Source: a virus (taxonomy: Duplodnaviria > Caudoviricetes). From it: a stretch of 56,266 nucleotides of DNA. Below the pieces are notes generated by a model. The model was not told where the DNA came from. It searched no databases and saw nothing but the letters and a program-made list of their open reading frames with translations. The position numbers were made by a program, and so were the translations under genes. This document shows, piece after piece, positions 13-56,266 of this stretch (the first letter of the stretch is position 1; each line of letters opens with the position of its first letter). The stretch is taken from the IMG/VR virus record IMGVR_UViG_3300046170_000364, positions 1-56,266 of that record; one strand, 5' to 3'.

Positions 13-154
13 TCGCACCATAAAAGTAGGCAATACGCTGCAAAGTTGTTTCGATAATGCAAGACACACCTCGCCCAGTAACCGAAATAGCGAAATCGGA
101 TATTTTATCATTTTTATTCTTATCGCGCTATCTTCGTATTATCGTATTTGAATC

Positions 155-2597: not shown

Positions 2598-3189
2598 ATG
2601 GCAATCCCTCCATCCATAACAAGCGGCGTGGATGCGGTATGGGTTGATGCCGAGACTGTTGACGTGTTTGGCGATGCTGTAACCAGCTCCACTCACTCTC
2701 TGGTCTATTACTTTCGCCTTAACACCAATTCGCAGGGCTTAACGGCAACGGCGGTTGCTTACAACAGCGGCTGGAAGACTACGCTGACTGCTGCCGCGAC
2801 TGGTTCAGCAGACCCCAGTCCTAGCTGGTTTTTTCAAGCTGTTCTCACGAAGACCGGTGATAGCACTGTTCAGGAATACAGCCGAGGCCAGATTGAGATT
2901 CGCCCTTCTTTGGCGTATACGGGCACACCTGGAGCGTTTGACGGCAGGACGCAGGCTCAACAGGACTTGGATGCAGTAAAAGCAGCCATCAGGTCCATCG
3001 TTTCTGGCGGCGCTGTCTCTGAGTATAAAATCGGGAAGTCGTAATTTAAAGCGATACGATCTCTCAGGAATTAATCGAACTTGAGTCAAGATTAAAGTCT
3101 ATCGTGGCTAAAGGAGAATAAAGCCAAACTGATTGCCTCAGGGCCTTGGCGATCCACATAATCTCTACGTTCGATTTAACGGAAGCTGA
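2598..3189 (+). CDS. Head-tail joining / head completion protein (gpW-like C-terminus), frameshifted near the 3' end
   Basis: Between terL and portal; C-terminal LDAVKAAIRSIVSGGAVSEYKIG followed in shifted frames by RNLKRYDL-like sequence; stop at 3187-3189 overlaps the portal ATG. Confidence 0.6.
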
Positions 3190-4674: not shown

Positions 4675-7131
4675 TGCCTGCAATGCCAACTGAAGGTATG
4701 CGCGAAGAAGCGCAACGTTATAGAGATTGGAAAGAGGATGGCCGCGATGGTGGTACTGAAGTAGCCGCTCGTCGCGCCACTCAAATTCTCAGCGGCAACG
4801 AACTCAGTGATGACACAATCGTCGAGATGAGTGCTTGGTTTGCTCGCCACGAAGTAGACAAAAAGGCTGAGGGGTTCAGCCCTGGAGAGGAAGGTTATCC
4901 TTCTCCAGGCCGTGTTGCCTGGGCTGCCTGGGGTGGTGACGCTGGCAAGGCTTTTTCTGATCGCACTGTTGAATCCATGGACCGCTCAATCGATGAAGAG
5001 ACCAGGGCCGAACCTGACGGCCTGAAGGTTGGTGATTTTGTTCGCTGGAGTTCGTCTGGCGGCAGCGCACAAGGCAAGATCACAAGAATTGTTCGCGATG
5101 GTCAGATCGACGTTCCTGATAGCGAGGTTGTCATCAATGGCGAAGAAGATGACCCTGCAGCTTTAATTCAAATTTATCGCGAAGGCGATGATGGCTGGGA
5201 ACAAACTGATGTTTATGTAGGACATAGATTCAGTACACTGACAAAGATCGAAGCCTTACGCGCAATGGAACTTACTTCGGAGGTGCCTGATGTTGTTGCA
5301 GAAGAGAGTTCTAAAAAAGAATTGTCTCGCGATCTTGAAGGTACAAAATTCAAGCGTGTTGAAGCGACAAGTTTCAACATGGTTGACGAAAGGAGCATGG
5401 AATTTCCATTCAGCTCTGAATATCCCGTGGCTCGTTACTTTGGAAACGAGATCTTGAGCCATGGCATGGAGTCTGCGAATCTTTCGCGACTCAATGATGG
5501 CGCACCGCTTCTTTATAACCATGATCCAGATCGCATGATCGGCGTTGTCGAACGTGCTTGGGTTGATGGTGAGAAGAAACGCGGTTACGCCAAGGTGCGC
5601 TTTTCGCGCAATAAATTTGCGCAAGAAGTGCTCCAAGACGTTCGCGATGGAATCCTTCGCGGCGTTTCTTTCGGCTACTCCATTGATAAAATGGAGGAGC
5701 GTGAAGATGGCCTCGTAGCTACCAATTGGTCGCCTTACGAGGTTTCGTTAGCTGTTATCCCAGCTGACCCCACTGTCGGAGTTGGGCGTTCTCTTGAGAT
5801 CGACGACTCTGACCTAAATGTTGAGGTTGAGCGTTCTTTACAGGACGCCGACCCTGACACTGCGGCTTCGACCGCATCTCCCGTAAACACAGTGACTGAA
5901 GTCATGGAAAGCACCACAACTGATGTGGAGGTGATCCGGTCTGAGGCCGTAGAGGCCGAACGTAACCGGATTGCATCCATCAACAAACTCGGCGAGCGTC
6001 ATAACCTCTCCGATCTTGCACGCGAATTGATCTCCGGCGGCCAGTCTGTCGATGAGGCTCGCGCTGCTGTCCTCGAAAAAATCGGAACTCAACCCGTGGA
6101 ACACAGCATCACCGCCAACGACATCGGCCTCTCTGATAAGGAGACCCGTAGCTTCAGCTTCGTCAAAGCTCTGAACTATCTCTCTAACCAGGGTGATGCT
6201 CAGGCTCGTCGCGATGCAGCATTTGAAATCGAAGTTGGCGAGGCTGCTGCCAAGCAGTACGAGCGTTCTTCAAACGGCATCGTTATTCCTAACGAAGTCC
6301 TCCGTCGCGACTTGGTTGTAGGTACACCTACAGCTGGTGGCGACTTGGTTGACGACGTGCTTCTGGCTGGAAGCTTCATCGACCTGCTTCGTAACCGCTT
6401 GTCAATCGCTCAGGCTGGCGCAACGATGCTGACCGGGCTGCAGGGCAATGTGTCAATTCCCGCGTCTGACTTCTGCTGCGACTGCTTACTGGGTTGGCGA
6501 GAACGCTTCTCCTAGCGAGTCTCAGCAGGCCATCGATCAGGTCAATATGACACCCAAGACCGTGGGTGCATTTGTTGATTATTCAAGGCGTCTTCTGCTT
6601 CAAAGCAGCATCGACGTTGAAGGCATGGTTCGCAACGACCTTGCCCGTGTGATCGCACTGGAAATCGACCGCGCTGCCATCTACGGCACCGGCTCTTCCA
6701 ACCAGCCTCAAGGCTTGACCAACGTGAGCGGTATTGGCTCCGAGACCCTTACGGGCACCGGCACCTTCACTGAGTACATCGCGATGGAGACCGACGTTGC
6801 TGCAGCCAACGCTGATGCTGGCGCTCTTCGTTACATCGTCAACGCCACCACTCGTGGCGGCCTGAAAGGCACCAAGAAGGACGCTGGAAGCGGCGAGTTC
6901 GTCTTCGCTGATAACGAGATCAACGGTTATCCCGTGATCGTTTCCAACCAGCTTGCTTCTAACGACGCACTGTTCGGTGACTTCTCCATGTTCATCATGG
7001 GCATGTGGTCTGGCTTGGATCTCACTGTTGATCCTTACGCTGGCGCTACTGCTGGCACCGTTCGCGTCATCGCTCTTCAGGATGTTGACTTTGCTGTCAA
7101 GCAGCCTTCTGCCTTCTGCTTCGCTAGCTGA
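4671..7131 (+). CDS. Fused N-terminal domains + HK97-type prohead protease + scaffold + major capsid protein (frameshift near 6460)
   Basis: Protease motifs PLLYNHD, VSFGY, PYEVSLAVIPADPTVGVGR; HK97 capsid motifs P(R)LTSAATAYWVGE, IYGTGSSNQPQG, LFGDFS, VDPY. Confidence 0.92.
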
Positions 7132-26772: not shown

Positions 26773-29369
26773 ATGGCCATCAAGGAACTGTTTTACGACA
26801 ACCGCCCACGGGTTTTGTTAGATCCGCGTGCATCGCAGCGCATCGATCCACGGTTTACGTTTACGCGGGATTCCACTGGCACCTATGTAGACAGTGATGG
26901 TCTGATTAAGACTGCTGCTGTTGATGAGCCACGATTTGATCGTGACCCCGTAACTGGTGAGTCCTTGGGGTTGTTGATTGAAGAGGAGAGGACCAACTTA
27001 GTGACTAACAGTGAAACTTTTCTTTTTGTACCTTTGGGAACCAATCCACCAAGTATATCCACGGTGTCTAATCAAGTCCTTCCTAGTGGTGAAATAGGTT
27101 CTGTCAAATTTGTTGTTTATAGCAGTGGGGATACTCGTGCCCGTTTAAGAGTAAATGGTTCTTTTACTGGGACTTATCGGGGTAGTATTTACTGGAAGTT
27201 AAAAGATGGTGGCACCTGGGCAAGGTACGACAGACCCGCTGACAATGCTGGAAGTTTTTTGTATTCTGACTTCAGTCCAGTAATGCTTGGTATTCCTAAT
27301 GGATCTGAAGTTTATTTTACTTTTGGGCAGATTGAATTAGGTTCCTTCCCAACCTCCTACATCCCCACATCCGGCAGCACCGTAACGCGCGCCGCAGACC
27401 TTCTTTCGACTGAAGCCCCACTACCTGCTACTGGTTCGCTTTACATCGACGCCCGCGCCATCAGCGCCAACGAGAATGACACGCTGCTTTCTCTCAAGAA
27501 CAGCAGCAACGACAAGATTGATCTCGCATATCTTTCCAACACTGCTACTTACAATTCGCTGGCGCTAATTGCCAATTATGACGGTACTAGCAAATCATCA
27601 CTGCCATTGCCGGTGCCAACCACCGACCGCGAACGCAATATCATCACCTACGGCACTAATAACTATCAATACGGACGTGACTCCTCACGTTTTGCCCCTT
27701 CATTAAGCAGTGCAATACCCACTGGCCTGAACAAGCTATCGATTGGCCACGATGCCGTAGATCCCACCAAGGCGTTTAACGGCTACATCAACACTGTTTA
27801 TGCCTGGTCCGGTGAGCTGACACCTGAAGTCGCAGAGGCATTGGTACGAGGTGAAATCGACGCCATTAATGCCGATACTTACAGCCCAACTGGCCCAGCG
27901 GGATCATTAGCACTGGTAATTAACACTCAAGGCGTTGAGGCTGACGGCGAAAAGACGTTTACTTTGCCTGCCGAGAGTGTCGCCAATGACAACGATATTG
28001 TGATCACATGGGGCGATGGCACTGAATCCGGCCTCGATGGCGCCTGCTGCGGAACTAGGCGCTGTCGGCTTGACGCACGATTACCCAGCCGCCGGTATCT
28101 ACCCTGTTTTCGTAGAAGGGCAGCTGCAAAATATCAAATACAACAACATCAGTAACGCAGGAGATTTGGTGTTGATCGCCGCCTGGGGCACTGGCGACAT
28201 GTTCACATCACCGAGCACGATGAACGGTGCTTTTTACGGCTGCAGCCAGATGGATTTCAGCAGTTCTGCACGCATCACAAACAGACCTGATACAAGTGCT
28301 GTTACCGACTGGGAAAATGCGTTCCGCGATTGCAGCAGTATTACTGGAACTTTCCCGTCTTTTGATTTCACCGCAGCTACGAACTTCACAAGCACATGGA
28401 ATGGATGCAGTAGTTTGGCTTCTATGCCAGCGATCTTTAGTCGCTGATGGTGACGTAACACAAAACGTGACAAACTTCTCCAGCGCCTGGAACGACTGCA
28501 GCGGGCTGACCAGCTTCCCGCTAATCGTTACATCTGAAGGCACTGACTTCTCCAGCGCCTGGAACGGCTGCAGCGGGCTGACCAGCTTCCCGCTAATCGA
28601 TACATCTGAAGGCACTGACTTCTCCAACGCCTGGAACGGCTGCAACAGCCTCACTAGCTTTCCATTGATTAATACATCTTTAGGTACAAATTTCAACGGT
28701 GCTTGGGACGGCTGCAACAGCCTCACTAGCTTTCCATTGATTAATACATCTTTAGGTACAAATTTCAACGGTGCTTGGAGCGGCTGCACCAGCCTCACTA
28801 GCTTTGCGTTAATCGATACATCTTCAGGTACAAATTTCAGCGGTGCTTGGACCAACTGCTTCAACCTCACTAGCTTTCCGTTAATCGATACATCTTCAGG
28901 TACAAGTTTCGCCAGTACTTGGAACATCTGCAGCGGCCTCACTAACTTTCCGTTAGTCGATACATCTTCAGGTACAAATTTCACCCGTACTTGGCGCAGC
29001 TGCAGCAGCCTCACTAGCTTTCCATTGATTAATACATCTTCAGGTACAAATTTCACCTTTGCTTGGAGCGGCTGCAGCAGCCTCACTGATTTTCCCGCTA
29101 GCTTCTTTGATTCATGGGCCGGGACACCCGTTGATGAGTGCTTTTATCAAACTTGGAATGGTTGCACCAGCCTCACAGCGACTTCAGTCGATAACATCCT
29201 TGTTTCAATTGCTGGCTCCGGTGTTTCCGCACCTAGCGGCACCGGCACTGACGATAAAAAGATCACAATCGACTATGACGGCACAACCCTCCCAGGCACT
29301 ACAGCCACAGCAATCACCACCCTTAAGTCCCGTAACTGGGAAATCTACCTGAACGACGTTCTCCAATGA
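26773..29369 (+). CDS. Tail fibre / receptor-binding protein with lectin-like N-terminal part and BspA/DUF285-like 24-aa repeats (two frameshifts)
   Basis: FTFTRDSTGTYVDSDG..PRFD..GLLIEEERTNL..FPTSYIPTSGSTVTRAAD; PKD-like ITWGDG; repeats FxxAWxxCxxLTSFPLIDTSxGTN. Confidence 0.75.
28473..29100 (+). repeat. About nine coding 72-bp (24-aa) tandem repeats
   Basis: Directly visible near-identical units, e.g. aat ttc aac ggt gct tgg gac ggc tgc aac agc ctc act agc ttt cca ttg att aat aca tct tta ggt aca. Confidence 0.95.
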
Positions 29370-43273: not shown

Positions 43274-44263
43274 TCAGAAGCATCGCTCAATCACTGTGGG
43301 TGACAACGCTCTAGCGACTTTTCCCGCTTTTGATCCGTTTTGAGGGTCATGCTGTGCAGTAACAACTGCCAGCGGAAGAGCTGCCTTGACGGATGACATT
43401 ACTTTTTCAAACCTTCCAGGCTTGTCTGCCTTGATCCATTTGAGAAAAGTGCCTCCTTCTGGCCTTGCTCTCTCAAGCTGATTCCAGAGACTATTACCTG
43501 CGTCGGAATACTGCGCGGGGGTAAAATGATTCAAGTCAAGATCTGCTGCTAAAAGTTTTACATAGCAAGAGAAGGCTGCCTTAAAGTCTTTAGCGTTCCC
43601 TGCGTGCAAGATTGAATCTTGAATGCTTTCGCAGCTAAATAGTTCAACTCCACTCGTAGAACCAACCCTTTCACGAATCTCTGCGCGAGAAAAATCCCTA
43701 GAGCCAGTATTGGCTGAAATAATTCGAGCCTGTACCTCTTGTTGAAGAGAGCAATTAATAACCGAGCAACGTACCTTTACGCTTTGATAACCATTAAAGC
43801 CAGCTGCTTTTAACATTATTTGCAACGCTAATGTGCGGTGACGGCCTGACGTAATGATTGGGCCAATAACTGATCCTGCTTGTAAGTCGTGAATGTAAGC
43901 GACTTCAATATCTTCCATCAGCCTTTTCTCTCTACCGCCTCCTGACTTGCGGATTAGCCCGTACCGCCCAAACAAGATGTCATTAACCGCTGAAGGGTCA
44001 ACGGCTTGAGCTGTTACTTCGTGCTTTGAACTTTCAGCTAGTTCGGCGAAAGTAAAACAACGTAGAGCAGAACCACCGTCCGGTTTTTGAACTTGAAACT
44101 CGCTTTCTAAGCTTTGAGTCGAAGAAACAACTCTTTGGATGTTTTTCTTTAGCTCAGAGGAGCCTGCCTTTGAACTGTTTAAAGCCTCAGTGGCTTTTTT
44201 GATCACAGGAGCGAGAGACGGGATCAAGCAGGGGTCGTAGTTGGTTGAAGTGCTGGCGTTCAT
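43274..44263 (-). CDS. ParB/Srx(DGQHR)-like domain protein
   Basis: PIITSGRHRTLAL followed by ARIISANTGSRDFSRAE, resembling the ParB N-terminal GxxR motif and downstream N..R..S helix. Confidence 0.5.
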   Translation of the reverse strand: MNASTSTNYDPCLIPSLAPVIKKATEALNSSKAGSSELKKNIQRVVSSTQSLESEFQVQKPDGGSALRCFTFAELAESSKHEVTAQAVDPSAVNDILFGRYGLIRKSGGGREKRLMEDIEVAYIHDLQAGSVIGPIITSGRHRTLALQIMLKAAGFNGYQSVKVRCSVINCSLQQEVQARIISANTGSRDFSRAEIRERVGSTSGVELFSCESIQDSILHAGNAKDFKAAFSCYVKLLAADLDLNHFTPAQYSDAGNSLWNQLERARPEGGTFLKWIKADKPGRFEKVMSSVKAALPLAVVTAQHDPQNGSKAGKVARALSPTVIERCF

Positions 44264-44333
44264 TTGAACTCAGTAAACGAAAGGACTGAGCTAAAATGGA
44301 AAGCGGATAGGCAAACCATTTAGCCATTGCATG

Positions 44334-44358
44334 ACCCCGATTGGCGTCGGGGTTTTTT
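44334..44358 (+). terminator. Terminator-like hairpin in the divergent intergenic region
   Basis: ACCCCGA-TTGGCG-TCGGGGT followed by TTTTT. Confidence 0.55.
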
Positions 44359-44524
44359 CATGCTGCAAGAACCATAACAGCAAAACGCCTGTGTTGTCGA
44401 ATTTGCGGTATATACCCGCCATCGGAGTGTGCGCACAAAGAATTATGACCCCAATGTTGTGTACACGTATATACACGCCAACCTCGCAGCTTTCGTGTAC
44501 TCTCAGTCCCTACAACAAAATTAG

Positions 44525-47193
44525 ATGCCTAACTCTGTTCTTATCGACTGGTCAATCACCGATGACTTCCTTGAAGCCATCGGTCGCAGCACCGGCCCCA
44601 TAGTTGTTGCTGTTTACCCCTCAGATCCGTCGCGGCCTTGCATCCACATCAAGGCGGACGCAGAGGACCTGCCGCGAAACAAAATCGAACGCATCCTCGC
44701 TCGTAACTCAGGCAGCAGTCTTGGCTTTGTAGTAAACCCACCCTCAGACCAGCCTGCCGTATGGGGCACCAAGCCAGAGCACATCAACCGGGCTGGTGAG
44801 ATTAAAGCTTGGGGCGCATCCAATGCCCACATCGAGCACGCAATCGCCTGCTTTGCAGAGTGCGACGGCAATCTCGACCGCGAAGCTCAAGCGGCACTGC
44901 CCGCAATGGCTGGCCTCCCGGAACCAACGGTCTCGGTCTGGACTGGTGGCAAATCCCTCCACCATTACTGGCTGTTCACCCCAGGCCAAGAGCCGGACAT
45001 CCAAGATTTCTCGGACTTGCAGCGCCGGATCGCCACGGCAATCGAGATTGTTGCGCCTGACTCCAAGCCAGACAAGGCGATCTCTAACGCATCTCGCGTC
45101 ATGCGCCTGCCCGGTGGTATCCACCCCAGTACTGGCGAACGCACGGTTATCGCCTCGACCAGAACTGAAACATTCACCCCAGACGAGATCGGTGCTGCTG
45201 CTCCAACGATTCTTCAACGTGGCACCCGCCCAGCAGAACCGTCTCATCACTGGTTTTCTAAACTCCCACCCGCAGAGCAGCGCACACTTGCTGTTGAAAT
45301 CCTCCGTGATTACATCCCACTCCGCACTGAAGCAGGCCAAGGCACCTATCCAACCTGCTTCGCCTGCCTCGCTGCTCTAACTCACCATTTCGGACAGTCA
45401 CTTGCACAGGACATCGTTCTGGAAGCTGACTGGCAATCACCCGGCACATGGGAGCCAGCCAAAAAGATCCTTTCAATCGGTGATGCACCAATCAGGGCGT
45501 CAATCAGCAGGCTGATCAACACCGCAATAGCAAACGGCTGGGAATTACCCCAAAATGTTGATACCGAAGAGCCAAACGAAGCACCAGAAGAACATCATGC
45601 AGTCATACCTTTTCAGTTTCTTGGTTATGAACATGGCAAGCATTACTACATGCCTAGAGCAAGTTCACAAGCAATTGAACTGACAATATCGTCACATACT
45701 AAACTGCACCTAATTTCGCTAACAAGCTCCTTAGAGTTCTGGCAGCGCAACTTCACAGTCAACGACAAGCTTGACTGGGATCTTGCTACCGAATGGCTAA
45801 TGCAAGAATCACACAAAAAAGGTGTATTTGATCCTGATCGTATTAGAGGCCGTGGTGCTTGGGTAGATGCTAATCGCGTTATCTTTCACCTTGGCATGAG
45901 AATGATAGTTGATAATCGCGAGCAAAAAGTATCAGACGGAATATCGAGTTACTACTTTTACGAACACGCCAAACCCCTTGATGGGCCTAGTGAAATCCCG
46001 TTAGAAGACGATGTTTCGGTTCAGCTTTTTAGACTTGCAAAGTCTTTCTCTTGGGAATCACCTTCCTATGCGTTCCTGCTTGCTGGCTGGGTTGCTCTTG
46101 CTCCTATCTGTGGCGCACTTGAGTGGCGCTCACATATCTGGGTCACCGGAGGTAAGGGCACGGGTAAGACAACAATCCTCAGTCGTTTCCTTAAGCCTTT
46201 GCTAGGCGGCATTTATCAATCAGCCACAGGTGGAACCACTGAACCTGGCCTTCGCGCTGCTCTCCGGTCTGATGCAATCCCTGTACTGTTCGATGAATTT
46301 GAGCAGAACGACTCCCGCGAAAAACAAAATCGCGACAACGTTCTAGCAATGGCAAGGATCGCATCATCGGAAGGCGGCAAAATCATTAAGGGCTCTGCTG
46401 GTGGTGGTGCCGCTAATCAATACGAAATCCGCTCCATGTTCTGTGTTTCATCAATCAATGCTTCCTTAGTGCAAGGCGCTGATCGTGATCGCTTCTGTGT
46501 CCTTACCTTGCAGAAGGGCGAGGGGGACTGGCTCCCGCTTGAGGCACAGATCGCCAAGCTCTGTACTCCCGAAACAGGTCGCAGCCTGGTGGCACGAACA
46601 CTGGCACGGGTGCCGACTATTAGGGCCAATGCGCGGAAGTTTGCAGCGGCCCTAGCTGATCGAGCACGGTCAGCGTTTTGGTGATCAACACGGCACCCTG
46701 CTCGGCAGGTGCATTCAGCCTGCTCCCAGGCAGTGATCGTGAGCTGTCTGATGTAGAGGCTGCTGAGTTTTGCGCTGGCATCGACTGGACATCACAGCGG
46801 CGCGATGAACGTGACGCTGATGAGGATCAATGCCTTGCGCGGATCCTTGAGTCAATGATCGCCGTGGAGGGCGGCAGAAGGTTCACGATCATGAATCTTG
46901 TCGAGAGTCTTTGCGGTCCCAAAATGGGAACTATTGAAGGTTCTGATGAAACTGCGGAAAAAGTTCTTGGCAGATATGGAATCAGACTTATGTCCGGTTC
47001 GATGATGATTGCTAATTCAAATACGAATTTAGAACGGCTTTTGAATGAGACAGCATGGTCTGGAGGGGCTCACAAGCAAGCACTGAAGCGGGTTTTCGGG
47101 GCTTCAGGCTCCACAGGAATGGTGAGATTCTGCGGAAGTAAGTCATCTAGGGCTACAGTGATTCCACTGACGGCAATTATCGACACGGATTAG
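44525..47193 (+). CDS. Primase-helicase (RepB-like primase + P-loop helicase), frameshift near 46660-46680
   Basis: FAECD, WTGGKSLHHYW, SRVMRLPGGIH; Walker A GGKGTGKT; Walker B VLFDEFE. Confidence 0.88.
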
Positions 47194-47200
47194 CCCAAAC

Positions 47201-47475
47201 CCCAGTCATACCAACCTGTATCACTTTAGCGATACATCGATACACGACCGATACGCCGACATCCACTGCGGCGCAAGGGTTGTATCGATGTATCGCTTTT
47301 TTGTGCCCACGAGTAAGTATGTGTGTGTAAGTAAGAGAGAGTAATATATATAATATATATTTATTGATACATTTATTATTATTGATACATCCCAGTCATA
47401 CCAGGGGGTTTGCCCGTATCACCCCCCGATACGTTTGTATACGTTCACTGCGGCGCAAGGGATCTCGGCGATACG
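47201..47475. other. Putative replication origin
   Basis: Non-coding, directly after primase-helicase; AT-rich core (47341-47390); direct repeats CCCAGTCATACCA x2, CACTGCGGCGCAAGGG x2, TTATTGATACAT x2; 17-bp inverted repeat; many GATAC/GTATC. Confidence 0.7.
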
Positions 47476-47510
47476 GTGCCTAAAAAAAGCCTTCCAGCTA
47501 GCCTTATCTC

Positions 47511-48269
47511 ATGCCAATCACCTTCGACGCTGAAGAAATAACCGGCAAGCTGGATGCCATCAGGCTCACCCAGCTTCCATTCGCTGCATCAAGAGCAGCT
47601 AACCAACTCGGCTGGGAGCTAAAGAACTCGGCGTGGCCTGCTTTTGCTAGGAGGGCCTTCAATCTGCGCGAAGGCAGCCCCGTGCCATTTACGACTGGTG
47701 GGGGAGGAGTTGTTGGTGGGCTTCTTTACAAGCACAACACTGGCGAGGCGAAAGTCAAGATCAGCCTTGACCGTCCTGCGCCAAAGGGCCAAGATCCTGC
47801 CCGCTACCTATCCCCTGGGGAGACTGGCGGACAGATTTACAAGACACGCTTTTCCCGAGCCTTGAGCCTCAAGGGAATAATGCCATCACAGTTCCAATAC
47901 GCAGCGCCGCTGATACTAAGCAAGGGTTTTGAAGGGCAAGTGAGCAATAAGCGAATCAATGCGGGGTATTACAAAACCATTTTGACGAGGCTCGAAGGGG
48001 ACTCAGCAAGGGGAAGCCGGGGAAGCAAGTTCGCTGGCTACAGGTTTTTCTCTGTACCTGATGCAAGAAAATCAAGCACTTCCGGTCGAAACTTGAATCC
48101 AGGTATTTACAGAGCGCAAGGCCGTGGCGAGCTGCAACAGCTTTTTAGTTATCTGGACAAGATGCCATCGGTTTCGTCTCGGTGGTCCTTCGAGGAATTT
48201 GCAGAGCGTGAATCTTTGCCCATACTGGAGCGCATACTCCCCCAGTTCATTGAGGAAGCCTTGAAGTGA
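47511..48269 (+). CDS. Putative tail completion / morphogenesis protein (gpZ-like)
   Basis: QLPFAASRAANQL..AF...PVPFT N-terminal motif; basic protein; PGIY. Confidence 0.5.
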   Translation: MPITFDAEEITGKLDAIRLTQLPFAASRAANQLGWELKNSAWPAFARRAFNLREGSPVPFTTGGGGVVGGLLYKHNTGEAKVKISLDRPAPKGQDPARYLSPGETGGQIYKTRFSRALSLKGIMPSQFQYAAPLILSKGFEGQVSNKRINAGYYKTILTRLEGDSARGSRGSKFAGYRFFSVPDARKSSTSGRNLNPGIYRAQGRGELQQLFSYLDKMPSVSSRWSFEEFAERESLPILERILPQFIEEALK

Positions 48270-48448
48270 TCGAGCCGTGCCAGCAGAGCGAGTTTTTTAT
48301 GGAGCGGCTCAGGAGGCAGTCACAGGGGATGAGCCGCGAAGAGCTGCTGGTCGTGGTCGATACTTTGAGCCGCTTGTACTGCACCACAAAGAGTGGAGCT
48401 AACTGGTTAGCCAAAGAAGCCGCCAAGAATTTGTCAGCAGGTTGTTGA
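48266..48448 (+). CDS. Small hypothetical protein
   Basis: 60-aa coupled ORF. Confidence 0.55.
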   Translation: MIEPCQQSEFFMERLRRQSQGMSREELLVVVDTLSRLYCTTKSGANWLAKEAAKNLSAGC

Positions 48449-48472
48449 CACGCTGCGCTTAAGAGCTATATT
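48445..48472 (+). promoter_or_regulatory. Sigma70-type promoter for early genes
   Basis: TTGACA-16 nt-TATATT, 27 bp upstream of the ligase-like ATG. Confidence 0.55.
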
Positions 48473-48499
48473 GCCGTTGCAAACAAAAATGCGTTTTAG

Positions 48500-49251
48500 A
48501 TGCCTTCCATTGCTTCGCTAAGAAAACAGGTCAAACAAGCTGATGACGCCTACAGGTCTGGCAATGCGCTCATGAGTGACCAAGACTTTGACCAACTTGC
48601 CGCTGACCTCAGAGCGGTTGCGCCGTTCGCTCCTGAGCTAATGCTCCCCGGGGGCGGGTCTCATCTTTTGAGCCTAAACAATGGCGACAGAGAGGAGCTA
48701 GCCCACTGGCTCTCCATGAGCGGCGCACAGGAGCCTCTGTGCGTGTCGGAAAAGGTTGATGGGTGTGCAATTGCCATTCGCTACGTTTCAGGCCGCTTAG
48801 AGGCCGCCTGGACGCGATCTGGTGCTGACGCTACTGCTTTGGTTGCTCGTGTTGCTCCAAAAAAGCTCTCACAGCGTCTCTCCATTGAGGTTCGCGGCGA
48901 GTTGTACGACTCGGTGACTGGCAAGCAAAGCGTTCCTGCTCAAGCCTTTGCGTAAGGCCGAATCACACTGGCGACGGACTGGGCTTTATCGCCTACACCC
49001 TTGTTGATGCTGATGGCGATGAGTTCTTGACGCTTGAGCGTTTAGCGACTCTTGGATTCGACACCGTGTCAGCTGTTTGCTGTACTACTGTCGCTGACGT
49101 GATCGCTTGTCATCGCCAGTGGAAAGCTGGATGCTTTGGCCGCTCAGAGCTTCCTACTGACGGCATCGTCATCAGGATTGCTGACCACGCAGCGCAGCAA
49201 GCTCTGGGCTGTAACAGCAAGGCTCCCAATTATGCTTTCGCTATGAAGTGA
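48500..49251 (+). CDS. NAD-dependent DNA ligase adenylation domain only (indels near 48945-48965)
   Basis: Domain Ia (DDAYRSGNALMSDQDFD), LLSLNN, EKVDG, IEVRGEL, LGFIAY, PTDGIVI, PNYAFAMK*. Confidence 0.85.
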
Positions 49252-49508
49252 TGGGCTTGACTATGCACTGGTGCACCCGGTTCTGGGAGCGATTCGCTAT
49301 CGGGATACTTGTTAGATCCAGAAACATCTCTCTACTTGCCTTCAAGGACCGAGACCTGGATCAGGTGATCATGGCTGGCTCAAAAGACGATCCTGCCGCT
49401 ATGGCGTTCATACAGGCCAACACTCCTAGTGATGAGCGCTATGCGGACCCAGACAGTTTGATGCTGGAACGCTTATTTCATGCTCCCGATGGGGAGAAAC
49501 CAAACTAA
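49248..49508 (+). CDS. Hypothetical protein
   Basis: 86-aa coupled ORF. Confidence 0.55.
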   Translation: MMGLTMHWCTRFWERFAIGILVRSRNISLLAFKDRDLDQVIMAGSKDDPAAMAFIQANTPSDERYADPDSLMLERLFHAPDGEKPN

Positions 49509-49513
49509 AAAAC

Positions 49514-49714
49514 ATGCAAACAGTTCACCTCAAAAAGTCCCATGACTTCGCAATTTTCATCGAAAACCACGGAGGAAGCTGGTTTGAAATCTCAGGGCAA
49601 GGTCGCGTCGCCCTCACTCCCGGCAGGTACATCAGCGCCTCCGACGCTAAGGACAAAATTCAAAGTCTGCGCTCAATGGGTTACAAGCGACAGCAACTCG
49701 CCAGTGATTCGTGA
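49514..49714 (+). CDS. Hypothetical protein
   Basis: 66-aa ORF with A-rich leader. Confidence 0.55.
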   Translation: MQTVHLKKSHDFAIFIENHGGSWFEISGQGRVALTPGRYISASDAKDKIQSLRSMGYKRQQLASDS

Positions 49715-49818
49715 AATCGTTGGAACGATCAGCTGCATGGCTGTAATTACTTACGTTTCCGGCTACACGTTTGGAACTTGGTTTCACAAGACTAAAAAAC
49801 AACTAACAGCAAAAAGCA

Positions 49819-50349
49819 ATGACTCGATTAATCGGACTGTATAGCCATGCTCCCGGCTCTGGGAAGACCACTGTTGCGTGGATGTGCGGAGGTTACAAAA
49901 GGTTGTCTTTTGCTGATCCGCTGCGAAAGTTCTCGGCCCAAATTCTTTCGTCTATTGGGTACGACGGCGTTGCCTGCTTGAGGGACAATAAGGAGGACAA
50001 AATTGTTGAGCTTGGTGTCTCCCCTCGCCAGATGATGCAAACGCTGGGCACTGAGTGGGGCCGGTCTTGTATTCACCCTGACCTCTGGGTCATGGTCGCC
50101 TCATGGGCTGCGATTAAGCAGTTGAAGAGTGGGCGAAATGTTGTTTTTGATGATGTGCGCTTTCCGAACGAAGCGGAAATGATCCGCAGGCTGGGCGGTG
50201 AGCTATGGCTTGTGGACCGGCCTGGTGTCCATTACGACGGAGACCATTCGAGCGAAGGCGCTTTGGCGGATGTTTTACCTGATGCGGTGGTTCATAACAG
50301 CGGAACTTTTAGTCACCTCCGTGAAGTGGTTGCTGGATTGCTCGAATGA
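49819..50349 (+). CDS. Deoxynucleoside monophosphate kinase
   Basis: LIGLYSHAPGSGKTT, SFADPLR, PRQMMQTLGTEWGR, VVFDDVRFPNE, HSSE. Confidence 0.92.
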   Translation: MTRLIGLYSHAPGSGKTTVAWMCGGYKRLSFADPLRKFSAQILSSIGYDGVACLRDNKEDKIVELGVSPRQMMQTLGTEWGRSCIHPDLWVMVASWAAIKQLKSGRNVVFDDVRFPNEAEMIRRLGGELWLVDRPGVHYDGDHSSEGALADVLPDAVVHNSGTFSHLREVVAGLLE

Positions 50350-50450
50350 CACTCACTATCAATTTTCTTGTATCTGGCTTTTGCTTATGGCTTGCTTTGG
50401 TCGCATTATTCCTTTTCTAATTGTCACTTTTTTTGTTTCTATTGCTTTAC

Positions 50451-50666
50451 ATGAACATGCCCTTATTTTTCCTGCTAGCACTGGTCACGGGGCCACCTAT
50501 CCAGCGAGTCGGTGAGACCTGTCCGCTGGGGTACTGGCGAAGCGGTGGATACTGTGTGGTTTCGCCTGGGGCCGTTGAGGTTCGAGATACGCTGCCAAAC
50601 CCGACTTTTGATACCTGCCCCGTGGGTTGGTATCGGGCGAAGGGTTATTGCCTGAGGACTCGCTAG
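50451..50666 (+). CDS. Small secreted/membrane Cys-rich protein
   Basis: Hydrophobic N-terminus; two TCPxGY/W..GYC repeats. Confidence 0.6.
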   Translation: MNMPLFFLLALVTGPPIQRVGETCPLGYWRSGGYCVVSPGAVEVRDTLPNPTFDTCPVGWYRAKGYCLRTR

Positions 50667-50675
50667 AGTCAAGCC

Positions 50676-50843
50676 ATGACAGGATTCAAATCAGAAGCCG
50701 CTGCTGCAGCACATGAGCAGTACATGAGGAGTGTTCACCTCGACGTTTTGTACGAGTTAGACGGCAGGGATAAGCCTGATCACCCGTTCAGGGGTTGTTA
50801 CACGGGTTTGTGGGAAATGTACGGGGAAAAGCATGACAGTTGA
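50676..50843 (+). CDS. Small hypothetical protein (55 aa, not in ORF track)
   Basis: MTGFKSEAAA..LDVLYELDGRDKPDHPFRGCYTGLW. Confidence 0.6.
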   Translation: MTGFKSEAAAAAHEQYMRSVHLDVLYELDGRDKPDHPFRGCYTGLWEMYGEKHDS

Positions 50844-51048
50844 AATTGCTAACACTGAGGACGGGCTTGGCTTGATCGTTCGCGTATGCGAAGATTCGAT
50901 TTGCCTTACCGGTTTTTGTAGCAGTATGCACCTCGTTGAAAAGAAAGCCAATGAGCTGCGAGCTGCTATCCGAAAAAAAACTGCTAAGGCATTTGCCGAG
51001 ATCCAACAGCTAGAAGCTGAAGCGATGGGAGCACCTGCTCCGCAATGA
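50833..51048 (+). CDS. Hypothetical protein
   Basis: 71-aa ORF in a coupled run. Confidence 0.6.
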   Translation: MTVEIANTEDGLGLIVRVCEDSICLTGFCSSMHLVEKKANELRAAIRKKTAKAFAEIQQLEAEAMGAPAPQ

Positions 51049-51272
51049 GCGCACAGACCGAGCAGCAGCGTCTCGAAATGCCTGCTCATCCTCTGCCTGT
51101 ATTTGAGCGGAATCAAGACGTAAGAATTTTCATGGGTGCAGGCTGGGCTAAAGGCAAGGTCATTCGTTCCGATTTAGACGGCTGCACGGTTCGGCTTCCT
51201 CAACTCCAGAGGACCGTCCGCGTTCGCGATGCTCGTAACATCTCTTTTCTTCCATCAAAACAGGACTGCTAG
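51045..51272 (+). CDS. Hypothetical SH3-like protein
   Basis: VRIFMGAGWAKGKV..CTVRL..DARN. Confidence 0.6.
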   Translation: MSAQTEQQRLEMPAHPLPVFERNQDVRIFMGAGWAKGKVIRSDLDGCTVRLPQLQRTVRVRDARNISFLPSKQDC

Positions 51273-51298
51273 CCAAAATGCGTTTAATGGTGTATGAT
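51270..51298 (+). promoter_or_regulatory. Sigma70-type promoter candidate
   Basis: TAGCCA-17 nt-TATGAT upstream of the 51347 gene. Confidence 0.4.
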
Positions 51299-51346
51299 TG
51301 ATTTGTCGGCGGGTTTCGTCGGCGTTTTTCTTTTTTTTTTTAATCC

Positions 51347-51769
51347 ATGACTAAATTCATTCCCGTAAACGCAGCACTTAATGCTCTGTCAGCAGCTGGC
51401 CATGAGGTAAGCAAGAGAGGCCGATTAAACGGTGGTGTTGCGCAGCTAGGCAGTCCTTCGTATTTCATTGACGGAAATCCCTGCAGCTTAAGTGAAGTAC
51501 GCAGAATGGTCTCTGAGCTTGGGCTTGAGAAGGAAGTCAAAAAATCTCATCAAAAGCCAAAAAGAGAGATTGAGATAATTTCTGAAGCTGTTTCTCGAAA
51601 TGAATGGTGCAAGTCCAGAAACACTTGCATTTGTACTCATGGTGAAAGGCATTTTGATGGTCGAGTTTACTACAGAATCTTTCAAGACAGTAAAGACGGT
51701 TCCAGTAAATCTTATGCAATGACAATTCAAAGAATCAGGGACTGGGCTGAACGCAACAAGGTTATTTGA
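51347..51769 (+). CDS. Hypothetical protein
   Basis: 140-aa ORF. Confidence 0.6.
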   Translation: MTKFIPVNAALNALSAAGHEVSKRGRLNGGVAQLGSPSYFIDGNPCSLSEVRRMVSELGLEKEVKKSHQKPKREIEIISEAVSRNEWCKSRNTCICTHGERHFDGRVYYRIFQDSKDGSSKSYAMTIQRIRDWAERNKVI

Positions 51770-51879
51770 TAGGTGACCTGCAAGCCTCCGGTTTTTACCG
51801 TGGGACTTGCACACACCCGGTTTTTAGGGGGCATGGGACTTGCAAGGGGTCGGTTTTCTTTATGTTTTCACACACAAAT

Positions 51880-51906
51880 GCACACACAAATATGTGTGTG
51901 CTTTTT
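51880..51906 (+). terminator. Terminator-like hairpin
   Basis: GCACACACA-AATA-TGTGTGTGC followed by TTTTT. Confidence 0.6.
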
Positions 51907-52170
51907 AATGAATTGCCTGACCGAGAAAAATATTTCCTGAGCTATTCGCACAAGTCCAACAAAAAAATCGTTCTTGCGAACACTTCTTAATAGACAAATA
52001 AGGTCACTAAATATCATAATCCTAACTCGATGCGAGTTAGCATCAAATAGCGATACCTTGCTTTAGATTTAACAATCACTATTTTTAACATTGCTAAACG
52101 CATTGTTTAAGCAAACTCAAAAAGTAGGTGTTAGCGACTCTGTGAGTTTGTTGTTAATAGTGTTGTTTAG

Positions 52171-52941
52171 TTAGTGATGTTCACCGCCCCGGTGGGTTAG
52201 TGATGCTCACCGCCCCGGTGGGTTAGTGATGCTCACCGCCCCGGTGGGTTAGTGATGTTCACCGCCCCGGTGGGTTAGTGATGTTCACCGCCCCGGTGGG
52301 TTAGTGATGCTCACCGCCCCGGTGGGTTAGTGATGCTCACCGCCCCGGTGGGTTAGTGATGCTCACCGCCCCGGTGGGTTAGTGATGTTCACCGCCCCGG
52401 TGGGTTAGTGATGCTCACCGCCCCGGTGGGTTAGTGATGTTCACCGCCCCGGTGGGTTAGTGATGTTCACCGCCCCGGTGGGTTAGTGATGTTCACCGCC
52501 CCGGTGGGTTAGTGATGCTCACCGCCCCGGTGGGTTAGTGATGCTCACCGCCCCGGTGGGTTAGTGATGTTCACCGCCCCGGTGGGTTAGTGATGTTCAC
52601 CGCCCCGGTGGGTTAGTGATGTTCACCGCCCCGGTGGGTTAGTGATGTTCACCGCCCCGGTGGGTTAGTGATGCTCACCGCCCCGGTGGGTTAGTGATGC
52701 TCACCGCCCCGGTGGGTTAGTGATGCTCACCGCCCCGGTGGGTTAGTGATGTTCACCGCCCCGGTGGGTTAGTGATGTTCACCGCCCCGGTGGGTTAGTG
52801 ATGTTCACCGCCCCGGTGGGTTAGTGATGTTCACCGCCCCGGTGGGTTAGTGATGTTCACCGCCCCGGTGGGTTAGTGATGCTCACCGCCCCGGTGGGTT
52901 AGTGATGCTCACCGCCCCGGTGGGTTAGTGATGCTCACCGC
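52171..52941. repeat. Tandem array 1: 29 full + 1 partial 26-bp units TTAGTGATG[T/C]TCACCGCCCCGGTGGG
   Basis: Counted by hand; no spacers; one dimorphic position; internal CACCG-CCC-CGGTG inverted repeat. Confidence 0.98.
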
Positions 52942-53092
52942 AAGTTGCCACCGGGGGCCGTGTCCTTAGCAACGGGGCCGCCCTGCAAACCGTCCACCGG
53001 TCCTTAACGCTTGCTTGCCAGTGGCGGGGGCATGCCCCTATAAAGGGTGAGCGATCGAAGCAACGATCGAAAATTAAATTGAAACCGAATCC

Positions 53093-53311
53093 ATGCACGC
53101 TCACACCTCTTCCGCCCTTCGCTTCTTTGGCTTTGGCGCAGCTGCAACCGGGGCCGTTCTGATTCACCTTGCTCTGGTGTCGGCTGCGATCCTTCCCATG
53201 GATTCCGAGGCATCCCGCAAGGGCTTAGGTGAATTCATTCAGGCTTCTTTGGCCACCGTGGCGATCGGCGCTGCTGCCGGTTCAATTGGCACGGCTGCAA
53301 AGCGCAGCTAA
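53093..53311 (+). CDS. Small membrane protein
   Basis: Two hydrophobic segments; AT-rich leader. Confidence 0.55.
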   Translation: MHAHTSSALRFFGFGAAATGAVLIHLALVSAAILPMDSEASRKGLGEFIQASLATVAIGAAAGSIGTAAKRS

Positions 53312-53342
53312 TCACTTAACCCTAATTTTTTTCTTTAAAACA

Positions 53343-54053
53343 ATGTCAAACACTTGTCACCCTTACGATCCCTCTACCGTTAACGCTAGGGAGTTTATCT
53401 CGGGTTTGCACCCCCGCCATTCTCGCGCTGGCGTGATAGTGAGCTATCGGGGGCCTACTAATAAGCGGGGCGCAGTTTGGCACGGTTCAATTAAGCGAAA
53501 CGCTAACGAAAGGGCGATCACCGCCACCGTCCCCAGCTATGACGGCCCCGATTCTGCAGCCAAAGCCGTGCTAGTTAAGGCAGACCTGAACTGGCGTCTC
53601 CTGCCCGCCGCATGCTTAGACGGCGGTGATCGTTACGCTTACGCTGCAGAATTGGCCCCCGGCGAAGGGGCCGCCCTTGCACAGGGTGAGCGGGGCATTC
53701 TGGCGATGCATGCATGCCAGTTGATGGGGCATCGCACGGCCCCCTACGGATCGGCCCGTATTGTTGCCGACATGGCCACCGGGCAGCGCAGACCCGAGCC
53801 CATCGTGGCGGGGTGGCGAAAGGGCCACCCGATCCTCGAGACCGTAACGGTCAGGGATCATTTGTGGCGGGATCTTTTTACGCTGAACGATAGCTTCGCA
53901 CCGATTCACGCTATGGCCTGTGCAAGGGCCGCCGGTTGGATTCTGTCGGCTGATTCTCTCGATCTTGCTAAGAAGTGGGTTGATGAATTGGGGCAGACCC
54001 CCGACGCTGCCGGGGTGGCCATTGCTCGCACAGCTTGGGAAGCCCGATCATGA
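53343..54053 (+). CDS. Hypothetical protein
   Basis: Likely start MSNTCHPY after an AT-rich leader; YRGPTNKRGA motif. Confidence 0.65.
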   Translation: MSNTCHPYDPSTVNAREFISGLHPRHSRAGVIVSYRGPTNKRGAVWHGSIKRNANERAITATVPSYDGPDSAAKAVLVKADLNWRLLPAACLDGGDRYAYAAELAPGEGAALAQGERGILAMHACQLMGHRTAPYGSARIVADMATGQRRPEPIVAGWRKGHPILETVTVRDHLWRDLFTLNDSFAPIHAMACARAAGWILSADSLDLAKKWVDELGQTPDAAGVAIARTAWEARS

Positions 54054-54283
54054 TCCGGCCCGGTGATCGAGTTCGGTACTCATCCAAATATTGTCGACAA
54101 TTGGGGGCCGTGTCGGGGTGGCTGCCCTCAGCGCGGGGCACTGTTACCCGCCTATGGGGGACCGGTGATCGATTAGCTGCGATCACATGGGACTATCACC
54201 CCGACGGCCCCGGCAGTCAGGGCGGGGCGGGAGTTGACGTGTTGCAACGGCTCACCCCGTCGGGGTGGCGGCCCCGTTCCTGA
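54050..54283 (+). CDS. Small SH3-like hypothetical protein
   Basis: IRPGDRVRY..RGTVT..AITWD; ATGA coupling. Confidence 0.6.
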   Translation: MIRPGDRVRYSSKYCRQLGAVSGWLPSARGTVTRLWGTGDRLAAITWDYHPDGPGSQGGAGVDVLQRLTPSGWRPRS

Positions 54284-54312
54284 TTCTTCTTTAAAAATCT
54301 TCTATTAATTCA

Positions 54313-55422
54313 ATGATCATGCAAACCGCACCAACTGCCCGTAAGAATGCCCCCTTAGGGCTGCCCGGTGACGTGTCAACTCTATTGGGCCGTTATGACT
54401 TAACCCTGTCGGGGCTGTTGACCGATTCAAACCCCAAGCTGGTAAAGGGGGAAGGCCGGGCCGTGATTCTGCATCACTTGCCCGCCGACGCTTTGGCCCG
54501 TGCTTTGGATTCTGACAACGGCGGCCCGGTGGCTGCCCGTAATTATCTGCCCGATGTGGCGGCCCTTGCGGCCCGGAACGGAATGATCACGGCGGGCTTA
54601 AGGCACAACGGTTGCCCGTGGAAGACTCCCGCATGTTCCCGTGATTGTCTCGCTTTTAGTGGTAGGGGTGGGCTTGGAACAGTGCCCGCCGAGGCAAGGG
54701 CTAGACGCACTTTGGCAATGATCGCCGACCCCGTAGCGTATGGGCGGGCCGTGCTTTGGGCGATAGCTTGGCATCACCGCCGGGCAGCTGATGAGGGCGA
54801 GAGACTGGCCGTAAGGTTACGGGGCACCGATGAGGGCCCCGTTATGGGATGGCACCGGCTCAGACTGCCGATCACTGCATCGGAATCTATGCAGCTTGCC
54901 CGACGGTTTGGCTTAAGTGTGCCCGTTGCCGGTGGCCCCCGTGATCCCGACGGCGGGGCCACACTCGCCGATCTCGCGGGGCACCTAGCCACCTTCTACG
55001 ACTATTCCAAAGCGCCACTACGGGGGCCGCTAGGTTTGGAAGCGCAGCGGGCAGCCGGTTGGGACGTAACCGCAAGTATGGCCCCCGATGCCCCCGACGC
55101 TGCCCGCCGTGTTATTGACGCGGCCCGTGCTGGGTTCCGGGTGGCGGTGCCCGTAGCATTAAAGAAGGGGCAGCGCATCCCGCAAGCGATCACGTTTAGG
55201 GCGCAGGATCGCCAGCCGTTAACACTGGCTACGGTTGACGGTGACGCCCATGATCACCGTTATCGGGAACCGGGCGGGGTGGCGGTGATCCTGAGGCAGA
55301 AACGATCAAGGGGGGGGCAGGGTTCCGGCTCACCTTTCTTCTTAAATGCCCCCGACGCCCCCCGCCGTGATCAAGGGATATCGACGGATCTTCCCGACGG
55401 GGTGGCTCTCTCTTACTGGTGA
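54313..55422 (+). CDS. gp88-like phage protein with Cx6Cx3C motif (possible Fe-S / radical-SAM-like)
   Basis: SNPKLVK, CPWKTPACSRDCLAFSGRG, AVRLRGTDE, FYDYSK, VDGDAHDHRY; family recognised from memory, not searched. Confidence 0.65.
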   Translation: MIMQTAPTARKNAPLGLPGDVSTLLGRYDLTLSGLLTDSNPKLVKGEGRAVILHHLPADALARALDSDNGGPVAARNYLPDVAALAARNGMITAGLRHNGCPWKTPACSRDCLAFSGRGGLGTVPAEARARRTLAMIADPVAYGRAVLWAIAWHHRRAADEGERLAVRLRGTDEGPVMGWHRLRLPITASESMQLARRFGLSVPVAGGPRDPDGGATLADLAGHLATFYDYSKAPLRGPLGLEAQRAAGWDVTASMAPDAPDAARRVIDAARAGFRVAVPVALKKGQRIPQAITFRAQDRQPLTLATVDGDAHDHRYREPGGVAVILRQKRSRGGQGSGSPFFLNAPDAPRRDQGISTDLPDGVALSYW

Positions 55423-55438
55423 TCTAAGCCCCTAAACT

Positions 55439-55502
55439 GCCCCGGCCCTACCGGGCTTTTTATTGCTTGCCCCTATTGCCTGGCCCGGTGATAGGGGCTT
55501 TT
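55439..55502 (+). terminator. Tandem terminators closing the terminal cassette
   Basis: CCCGG-CCCTA-CCGGG then CTTTTT; then GCCCCTATTGCC-6 nt-GGTGATAGGGGC then TTTT. Confidence 0.75.
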
Positions 55503-55505
55503 AAT

Positions 55506-56052
55506 GCCCTGGCGGCTGATCGCCCTGGCGGCTGATCGCCCTGGCGGCTGATCGCCCTGGCGGCTGATCGCCCTGGCGGCTGATCGCCCTGGAGCTGATC
55601 GCCCTGGCGGCTGATCGCCCTGGCGGCTGATCGCCCTGGAGCTGATCGCCCTGGAGCTGATCGCCCTGGAGCTGATCGCCCTGGAGCTGATCGCCCTGGA
55701 GCTGATCGCCCTGGCGGCTGATCGCCCTGGAGCTGATCGCCCTGGAGCTGATCGCCCCTGGAGCTGATCGCCCTGGAGCTGATCGCCCTGGAGCTGATCG
55801 CCCTGGAGCTGATCGCCCTGGCGGCTGATCGCCCTGGCGGCTGATCGCCCTGGCGGCTGATCGCCCTGGCGGCTGATCGCCCTGGAGCTGATCGCCCTGG
55901 AGCTGATCGCCCTGGAGCTGATCGCCCTGGAGCTGATCGCCCTGGAGCTGATCGCCCTGGAGCTGATCGCCCTGGAGCTGATCGCCCTGGAGCTGATCGC
56001 CCTGGAGCTGATCGCCCTGGAGCTGATCGCCCTGGAGCTGATCGCCCTGGAG
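55506..56052. repeat. Tandem array 2: 35 full + 1 partial units GCCCTGG[A/CG]GCTGATC (15/16 bp)
   Basis: Counted by hand: 12 CG-type and 23 A-type units (one with an extra C); no spacers. Confidence 0.98.
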
Positions 56053-56227
56053 ATATATCGTAAAATCCTATTCTTAAATCAATGCTCTACTTTATACAAT
56101 CTATTAATCGTAGTAAAATATTGTTGACAATAGCAATCTGATAAAAATATATTTTTAAGAAAAATAATTTATAGATTTATATCGTAGGATTGACTATGTA
56201 TTACTAATAAAAACTAAAAATTTTTAA

Positions 56228-56234
56228 GGGTCCT
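56228..56234 (+). other. cosQ-like packaging termination site
   Basis: GGGTCCT is identical to lambda cosQ and ends 20 bp before the terminal 12-mer. Confidence 0.6.
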
Positions 56235-56254
56235 ATGTAACACTAACCACTGCG

Positions 56255-56266
56255 AAGGTATTCTGA
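56255..56266. other. Right genome end; putative cos 12-mer
   Basis: AAGGTATTCTGA versus AAGGTATTCGGA at positions 1-12. Confidence 0.7.

Follow-up and report, generated by a model that had tools for sequence, protein, structure and literature searches.

The window analysed here is an entire IMG/VR virus record of 56,266 bp, and PHROG and Pfam scans identify it as a siphophage genome. From the left end onward it carries genes for the small and large terminase subunits, portal, protease-capsid, tail proteins and endolysin, and the nucleotide-metabolism and replication genes are located on the opposite strand. A primase-helicase (44525-47193), a ligase fragment and a dNMP kinase lie ahead of a long non-coding tandem array near the right end, hereafter Array 1. 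The last 12 nt of the window (56255-56266) repeat positions 1-12 with one mismatch, a terminal redundancy that marks a putative cos-type junction; one related genome (G001) begins at the same base as the window, and a second (G002) reads across the junction with a single copy of it (L014:1-20; L290:100-125). As read from these sequences, the window ends fit cos-type cohesive ends, which would place Array 1 at 3.3 kb and a second array (Array 2) at 214 bp from the right end. The genome in this record is thus probably complete, although CheckV puts it at 71%. Its base-level accuracy is imperfect, considering that 11 single-base insertions relative to G001 were found within 1250-6456, most of which lengthen a short run. 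As a result, the large terminase gene is broken in three and the portal and protease-capsid genes are each broken in two, whereas all of them are whole in G001; the insertions are probably sequencing errors of a long-read assembly. The primase-helicase is also divided between two ORFs (44525-46684 and 46678-47193). A further repeat of 72 bp x 8.6 (85% matches) at 28470-29087, within ORFs 28227-29369 (+) and 28208-29086 (-), is probably a 24-aa repeat of a tail-region protein. In the phage collection, no megablast match to 44000-56266 and no tblastn match to the GP88-family protein described below were detected. The best isolate match of the G001 terminase is that of Synechococcus phage S-LBS1 (46% identical), whose record has no comparable right-end module and whose paper mentions no repeats, LexA or CRISPR.

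Array 1 lies within a non-coding stretch (51770-53092) that separates a 140-aa gene (51347..51769, +) from the right-end module. The N-terminus of the 140-aa product (GHEVSKRGR) resembles the Lsr2 DNA-binding motif, with a Pfam Lsr2_DNA-bd score (E 0.0021, 17.8 bits) under the cutoff of 26.9, and a homologous N-domain opens the first post-array gene in L018, L116 and other loci (L018:568-1500; L116:2670-2760). Such an Lsr2-like domain (GHxVS/TxRGR) is found either before the leader (window, G002) or in the first gene past the array promoter (36/137 loci). The non-coding stretch begins with three copies of a motif of about 30 bp, GACYTGCA-N6-8-CGGTTTT, read in the sequence at 51772..51857 (+), and in relatives the corresponding position holds three to five comparable motifs of 21-24 bp in tandem. 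Motifs of this GGGACTTGC...CGGT type, 21-30 bp long and in three to five copies, follow the last pre-leader gene (L154:4125-4215; L143:3556-3659; window), and may be either terminators or a further protein-binding array. They are followed by a terminator-like hairpin with a T run (51880..51906, +; a 9-pair stem at 51880-51901, then TTTTT) and by a conserved AT-rich leader (51907..52172). The leader contains a promoter-like site (51991-52020) whose -35 region is unconserved in G002, and its homology with G002 (L020) extends to 52175 and ends there. Past Array 1, a GC-rich spacer of 73 bp (52942..53014), partly conserved with L017/L018, leads to a predicted sigma-70-like promoter, TTGCCA-18-TATAAA (53015..53044, +). 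The pattern TTGNNN-16..19-TAWWWA occurs 73-200 bp past the array in 12 of the 24 loci with such arrays.

The right-end module itself (53093..55422, +) consists of genes for products of 72 aa, 236 aa (53343-54053), 82 aa (54035-54283) and 369 aa (54313-55422), the last of which belongs to the GP88 family (PF17338), a family very common in aquatic metagenomes. The module is missing from G002 and is found in L017/L018. G+C content is 58-66% in the region 53000-56000 but about 50% elsewhere in the genome, a contrast compatible with the module having come in as a cassette from higher-GC relatives such as L017/L018. The GP88-family protein has three invariant cysteines (C101, C108 and C112). Its confidently predicted model gave nothing at E 0.001 or better in Foldseek, and in a wide fold search radical-SAM enzymes were best at Z 5-6, possibly reflecting only a common arrangement; judged from the model, the protein has the look of an enzyme, its fold weakly resembling that of radical-SAM proteins. 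Array 2 (55506..56052) comprises 35.6 units of 15 or 16 bp, whose variants GCCCTGGAGCTGATC and GCCCTGGCGGCTGATC occur in runs, and related short arrays are located 3' of the GP88-family gene in many relatives. At the place of Array 2, G002 and many relatives have CCTGGAG-type or 33-34-bp arrays, some with GGTGATCACC. The G002 contig is broken inside its own Array-2-like repeat, and both of its ends lie inside an array of the CCTGGAG / 33-34-bp kind.

Tandem Repeats Finder places Array 1 at 52170-52941, with a period of 26, 29.7 copies, 98% matches and no indels. It is built from 30 copies of the dyad AGTGATGYTCACC with 29 copies of a 13-bp spacer between them. When the unit is written with a single Y position it gives 29 matches without any mismatch, on the + strand every time, followed by an 18-nt partial unit that closes the array. 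The dyad GTGA-TGY-TCAC forms both the first and the last element of the array, the variable base being the dyad centre. The first-pass annotation had described an array of 26-bp units carrying 16 T and 14 C alleles in a given order, non-coding, with an overlapping GTGA-N3-TCAC dyad, and all of this was borne out: the allele order is exactly as described, the array contains no ORF of at least 40 aa, and the dyad is readable in the sequence. The order of T and C looks random, without pattern (12 runs against about 15.9 +/- 2.7 expected at random, by hand arithmetic). The 12-mer GTGATGYTCACC occurs exactly 30 times in the array and outside it only as two one-mismatch copies, and none of 100 shuffles reached 32 matches at up to one mismatch. 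Across the whole window no tRNA and no Rfam match at gathering score (0 covariance-model matches) were detected. In a scan of genome contigs, GGTGATGCTCACCNCCCC gave one match per stretch among the at least 120 stretches listed, which come from diverse bacteria; by a hand estimate, these single matches among those listed are about the chance number for the pattern length and collection size.

Array 1 is not an invention of the assembly and stands independently of it. We examined Logan contigs from three runs of seawater DNA, each belonging to a different study (X1-X3), of which X1 may be the window's own source, and array depth was 5-10 times that of the flanks in all three (flank depth 9.5, 6.2 and about 1-2; summed array bins 454, 209 and 24.8). 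Contigs of array units in X1 have depths of 53-103, and one X1 contig joins an array unit to the right flank, as in the window. The read comparison, which covered the left flank and two units of the array, revealed one C>T place within 52181-52221 in X1, and we take this to be the dimorphic base.

Comparison with close relatives shows that array and downstream module are exchanged as a set, independently of the primase and the leader. G001, a short-read assembly, ends inside the same 26-bp array, with all alleles T in the 127 bp present, and has a 16-bp x 11 array directly before it; its primase is only 39% identical to that of the window. G002 has a primase that is 98% identical and the same leader up to window position 52175, and past the leader there follow an array of 25 bp x 6.1 whose sequence is unrelated, a promoter resembling that of the window and a set of unrelated genes. 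L017/L018 share the module genes (about 53-57% for the GP88-family protein and about 36-43% for the 236-aa gene), and the window's unit shares its core ACCGCCCCGG(G)TGGG(G)T with their 35-bp array. G001 also has an extra 233-aa gene ahead of its arrays (L009:6753-7454), which has no Pfam match and whose product contains a YPNYNQLMP motif that presumably recalls the sliding-clamp beta subunit.

To place Array 1 in a wider context, loci were collected with an alignment of 26 GP88-family homologs, yielding 137 loci (80 metagenome and 57 viral), 109 of which have at least 1500 bp upstream of the GP88-family gene and were counted. The family has more than 568 homologs, the longest contig being only 1-4 kb for many of those listed. 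A tandem array is present within 3.2 kb upstream of the GP88-family gene in 64 of the 109 loci and absent in 45; 15 arrays touch the contig start, and short-read assemblies lose such arrays, which may partly explain the loci without one. Upstream periods cluster at 15-16, 21 and 24-26, with 29 arrays at 24-26, and 30/109 loci have an array of period 23-27 in the slot. Arrays are found in this position in loci whose GP88-family identities span 44-94%. Units clearly related to that of the window (GCTCACC type) were found in 11 loci, with 3-10 copies where the array lies wholly within the contig, so that copy number among relatives ranges from 3 to 30. These arrays start with GGTGAT and mostly end with GCTCACC, i.e., n spacers lie between n+1 dyads GGTGA-TGC-TCACC, and 19 of 36 alignment columns are invariant among the related units. 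All nine related unit types from other arrays have C at the variable position, which indicates that T is the derived allele. The array of L042 was left out owing to its ambiguous orientation (14 vs 16 of 26 identities, by hand count). In L096:2521-2634 two unit variants strictly alternate (ABAB), giving a true period of 52 bp, about five helical turns. When module genes were compared by tblastn and clustering in search of a partner gene, none was seen to follow the array family: neither the 236-aa gene, the 82-aa gene nor the first gene after the promoter tracks it. L034 and L041 have a GCTCACC-type array, yet no tblastn match for the 236-aa and 82-aa genes, and the first gene past the promoter varies among loci of one array type. 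One apparently universal module-gene cluster was set aside as probably a single-linkage artefact on Ala/Pro-rich sequence.

The slot occupied by Array 1 collects tandem rows of predicted sites for DNA-binding regulators. The cyanobacterial LexA consensus is RGTACNNNDGTWCB / AGTACWNWTGTACT according to the portion of PMC3091678 used here. Perfect matches to it occur in 27 of 286 loci scanned, all of them GP88-related, and lie within 3.2 kb upstream of the GP88-family gene in 26 of the 109 counted loci. The 16-bp arrays of relatives (TAGTACATTTGTACTA) contain the LexA box, and such boxes stand in tandem in L140, L160, L155 and elsewhere. The 16-bp x 11 array of G001 is near-consensus LexA and resembles the PCC 7002 recA box as given in that portion of PMC3091678. 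For Pho boxes, the part of PMC1906773 drawn on here describes a layout of three or more 8-bp CTTAACCT-like boxes with 3-bp linkers; this array layout was found in L154 only, which has about 20 Pho-box-like units CTTAACYT at an 11-bp period (15 overlapping pattern matches). Host PhoB binds cyanophage promoters, and predicted Pho boxes in phages are called unreliable, in the sections of PMC10976474 consulted. A limited literature search found no paper on tandem LexA-box or Pho-box arrays in cyanophages. The comparison with cyanobacterial regulator motifs proposed in the first-pass annotation gave a divided result: LexA and Pho boxes are present in relatives, but the window's own unit matches neither, with no match to RGTACNNNDGTWCB in the window and no Pho box in the 26-bp unit. 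The predicted boxes in relatives, together with the 46% terminase match to S-LBS1, point to cyanobacteria as probable hosts.

The leading idea of the first-pass annotation was a structured RNA or ssDNA, in which the + strand, transcribed or exposed as single strand, would form a chain of hairpins acting as a sponge for proteins, as a decoy resembling CRISPR repeats or as a precursor to be processed into 26-nt units. An 8-pair hairpin is possible in each unit on the + strand, where both alleles pair, and a promoter-like site lies 150 bp upstream of the array. The stem CACCG-CCC-CGGTG is readable with its G.T, Y.G and T.G extensions, but the predicted fold of five units consists of long-range pairings between units and not of a chain of local hairpins. 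The preference claimed for the + strand was reversed when both strands were folded: five + strand units gave -54.5 kcal/mol (z -1.87; 9/200 shuffles as good), no better than shuffles, and the - strand folded better, at -59.1 kcal/mol (z -4.56; 0/200 shuffles as good). Among the arrays of three syntenic relatives, only that of L116 folds far better than shuffles (z -7.3), a point in favour of the hairpins, and it folds well on both strands; those of L020 (z -0.72/-0.65) and L083 (z +1.66/-0.07) are no better than shuffles on either strand. The proposal had committed itself beforehand to a stem conserved in homologous arrays. We aligned 12 distinct unit types from 8 related arrays and counted pairs, and for the inner stem neither compensatory changes nor conservation was found: pair A15-U25 is broken in 8/12 unit types and G18-C22 in 5/12, and the claimed helix has 83% of cells paired, with 336/500 shuffles reaching the observed pairing and covariation. 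The four outer stem pairs are invariant in the 12 unit types and hence uninformative. A shifted 4-pair helix and the GTGA/TCAC dyad showed no covariation above shuffles in the same 12 unit types, and dyad pair 7-15 is broken in 4/12. With the inner stem unconserved, the - strand better folded and no Rfam match, the structured-nucleic-acid idea fails on several sides. Array 1 is not CRISPR-like because its units abut without spacers (29 consecutive unit starts in 26-bp steps), which tells against a decoy, and in the genome scan the at least 120 stretches listed had one unit match apiece. A terminator-like hairpin precedes the leader, and the -35 region of the leader site is unconserved in G002, both of which count against this idea; an RNA run (X24, oligo-dT, share 0.05) with nothing on 50000-52221 says nothing either way. 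We therefore consider a hairpin chain highly improbable. The comparative sequence evidence favours instead the alternative raised in the same annotation, a putative DNA operator array.

Three further explanations of Array 1 were considered. The array might be a functionless, fast-evolving minisatellite, in which slippage or unequal recombination at a module boundary expands any dyad unit and the slot tolerates the result. Its near-perfect copies with two variants in runs are what recent expansion would leave, and Array 2 has the same appearance; the homology of the window with G002 breaks off precisely at the array, copy number ranges widely among relatives, and no partner gene was found. However, recurrence at the same place over GP88-family identities of 44-94% with a preferred period of 24-26, the 19/36 invariant columns in related units and the recognisable regulator sites in the slot would not be expected from random slippage, and we regard this explanation as unlikely. 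Rather less likely, in our estimation, is a replication element, i.e., origin iterons or a cis region like the ori/crr of P4 beside an AT-rich unwinding region. Array 1 comes after replication genes (primase-helicase, ligase fragment and dNMP kinase) and adjoins the AT-rich leader, so that the window does show repeated sites by an AT-rich region, as iteron origins do. Moreover, its T-allele units contain TGTTCACC, the P4 type-1 ori repeat; this exact 8-mer is present in 12 of the 16 P4 repeats, taken from the P4 record's own annotation. On the other side, the primase-helicase is not detectably P4 alpha-like (best BLASTP E 0.15, in the Walker A loop only), and the primase is uncoupled from the array, being 98% identical in G002 with another array and 39% identical in G001 with the same one. 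The nine related unit types give TGCTCACC or AGCTCACC and not the P4 8-mer, and a 26-bp period, unlike the roughly 22 bp typical of iterons, does not make up whole helical turns.

The least probable explanation, to which we give little credence, is a role in DNA entry or end protection, such as a T5-like pause site or a Chi-like stack against host exonuclease, bordering the 3.3 kb that would enter the cell first. It would suit the cos-type ends, with the terminase genes at the left end; by analogy with lambda, the right end would be the first to enter. A predicted promoter of its own serves the module lying between Array 1 and the end, and the strand whose 3' terminus is at the right end carries a G-rich motif. 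The stop region of T5 is likewise untranslated and full of repeats and palindromes, according to the part of 10.1101/866236 used here. Nevertheless, the unit differs between phages that are otherwise 98% alike, unlike a host-nuclease signal, and the LexA and Pho boxes found in this slot suggest transcription regulators instead.

Considering its position, anatomy and sequence conservation, we suggest, with the balance of probability evenly poised, that Array 1 is a double-stranded array of candidate protein-binding sites. Each docking site would be the 13-bp dyad AGTGA-TGY-TCACC, 30 of which are spaced 26 bp apart, suited to a dimeric DNA-binding protein. A dimer usually makes no base contacts at the dyad centre, and the T/C difference, being located there, is most simply neutral. 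Array 1 would then fill a fast-changing slot in the control region of the right-end module, in a putative order of terminator-like repeats, AT-rich leader, array, about 75 bp, sigma-70-like promoter, module genes, Array 2 and cos end. Through very high avidity, such binding may govern how active the nearby promoter is; or else the array, multiplied by genome replication, may soak up a host or phage regulator. Both the binding of a protein to this unit and the effect of such binding are presumed here. The anatomy, the synteny, the swapping of array and module and the recognisable host-regulator sites in the relatives' slot are direct observations. The status of the window's own unit as a regulator site rests on analogy by position, because it matches neither the LexA nor the Pho box.

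Several observations count for the binding-site reading. The slot is conserved and its content is not, as G002 illustrates; the motif is confined to the array, and primary sequence is conserved among related units; the left half of the dyad opens the arrays and the right half closes them; and periods are clustered, regulator boxes occur in the slot and a promoter is conserved downstream. Counting against it are the negative search for a partner gene, a copy number of 30 that is far beyond the need of one promoter, the broken dyad pair 7-15 in 4/12 unit types and the limited share of loci (30/109) with a 23-27-bp array. A bolder and rather unlikely extension of the binding-site reading is that widespread aquatic siphophages, probably cyanophages, carry an exchangeable slot by an end-proximal early promoter, loaded with arrays of host-regulator sites (LexA, Pho and other factors) that serve as DNA sponges. 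On entry, and more so after replication, such arrays might pull a regulator off the host chromosome and thereby rewire host stress regulons, and the early module of the phage might be tied to the same regulator signal. If so, the 30-copy array of the window, as the largest example, would reveal the site of a further regulator. If these rows are indeed binding sites, host stress signalling (the SOS response, phosphate limitation and one or more further pathways) would be read or drained by repeated DNA without a gene product, and rows swapped like cassettes would be a cheap and evolvable means of host takeover that gene-centred annotation misses. Since such arrays break short-read assemblies, the right-end module is routinely lost from viral genome bins. 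The 26-bp unit offers a concrete bait for its binding protein.

Tandem arrays of binding sites are already known as iterons, centromeres and operators; for an exchangeable slot of high-copy host-regulator arrays by an end-proximal phage promoter, a limited literature search found no precedent. In the sopC centromere of F, a 43-bp unit is repeated 12 times in tandem, and SopB binds the inverted repeat that every unit contains. Array 1 is like centromeres of this type in being a long tandem row of near-identical non-coding units with a short dyad, as double-stranded DNA, but differs in its location upstream of a promoter at the genome end and in the lack of plasmid-prophage hallmarks. ParA/ParB or ParM/ParR-like genes gave no PHROG or Pfam match among the 40 window ORFs scanned. 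With the type-1 ori/crr repeats of P4, Array 1 shares TGTTCACC in its T-allele units and a multicopy non-coding region after replication genes, but the P4 repeats are dispersed and in both orientations, whereas the window has a perfect tandem array and no P4-alpha-like protein. Known LexA and Pho boxes, including those of cyanophage promoters, have the same motifs as the relatives' slot, some in tandem, in the portions of PMC3091678, PMC1906773 and PMC10976474 used. These known cases number 1-3 per promoter, whereas the relatives' arrays contain 4 to about 20, and the unit of the window fits neither box. The iss region of T5, as far as described in the part of bioRxiv 10.1101/866236 used, is also a large, untranslated, repeat-rich border of the early-gene segment that enters first, and is proposed there to bind the host DNA-binding protein DnaA. 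It differs in consisting of complex DnaA boxes and palindromes within a long terminal repeat and not of a perfect 26-bp tandem array, and the phage of the window is not known to enter in two steps. Finally, the tandem repeats of Borgs resemble the phage arrays in being perfect, recent and fast-evolving, in part intergenic, and carried by a mobile element, in the sections of PMC9605863 and 10.1101/2022.05.18.492195 used. Borg repeats are described in those sections as genome-wide and often within genes, whereas the phage arrays are located in one or two fixed slots.
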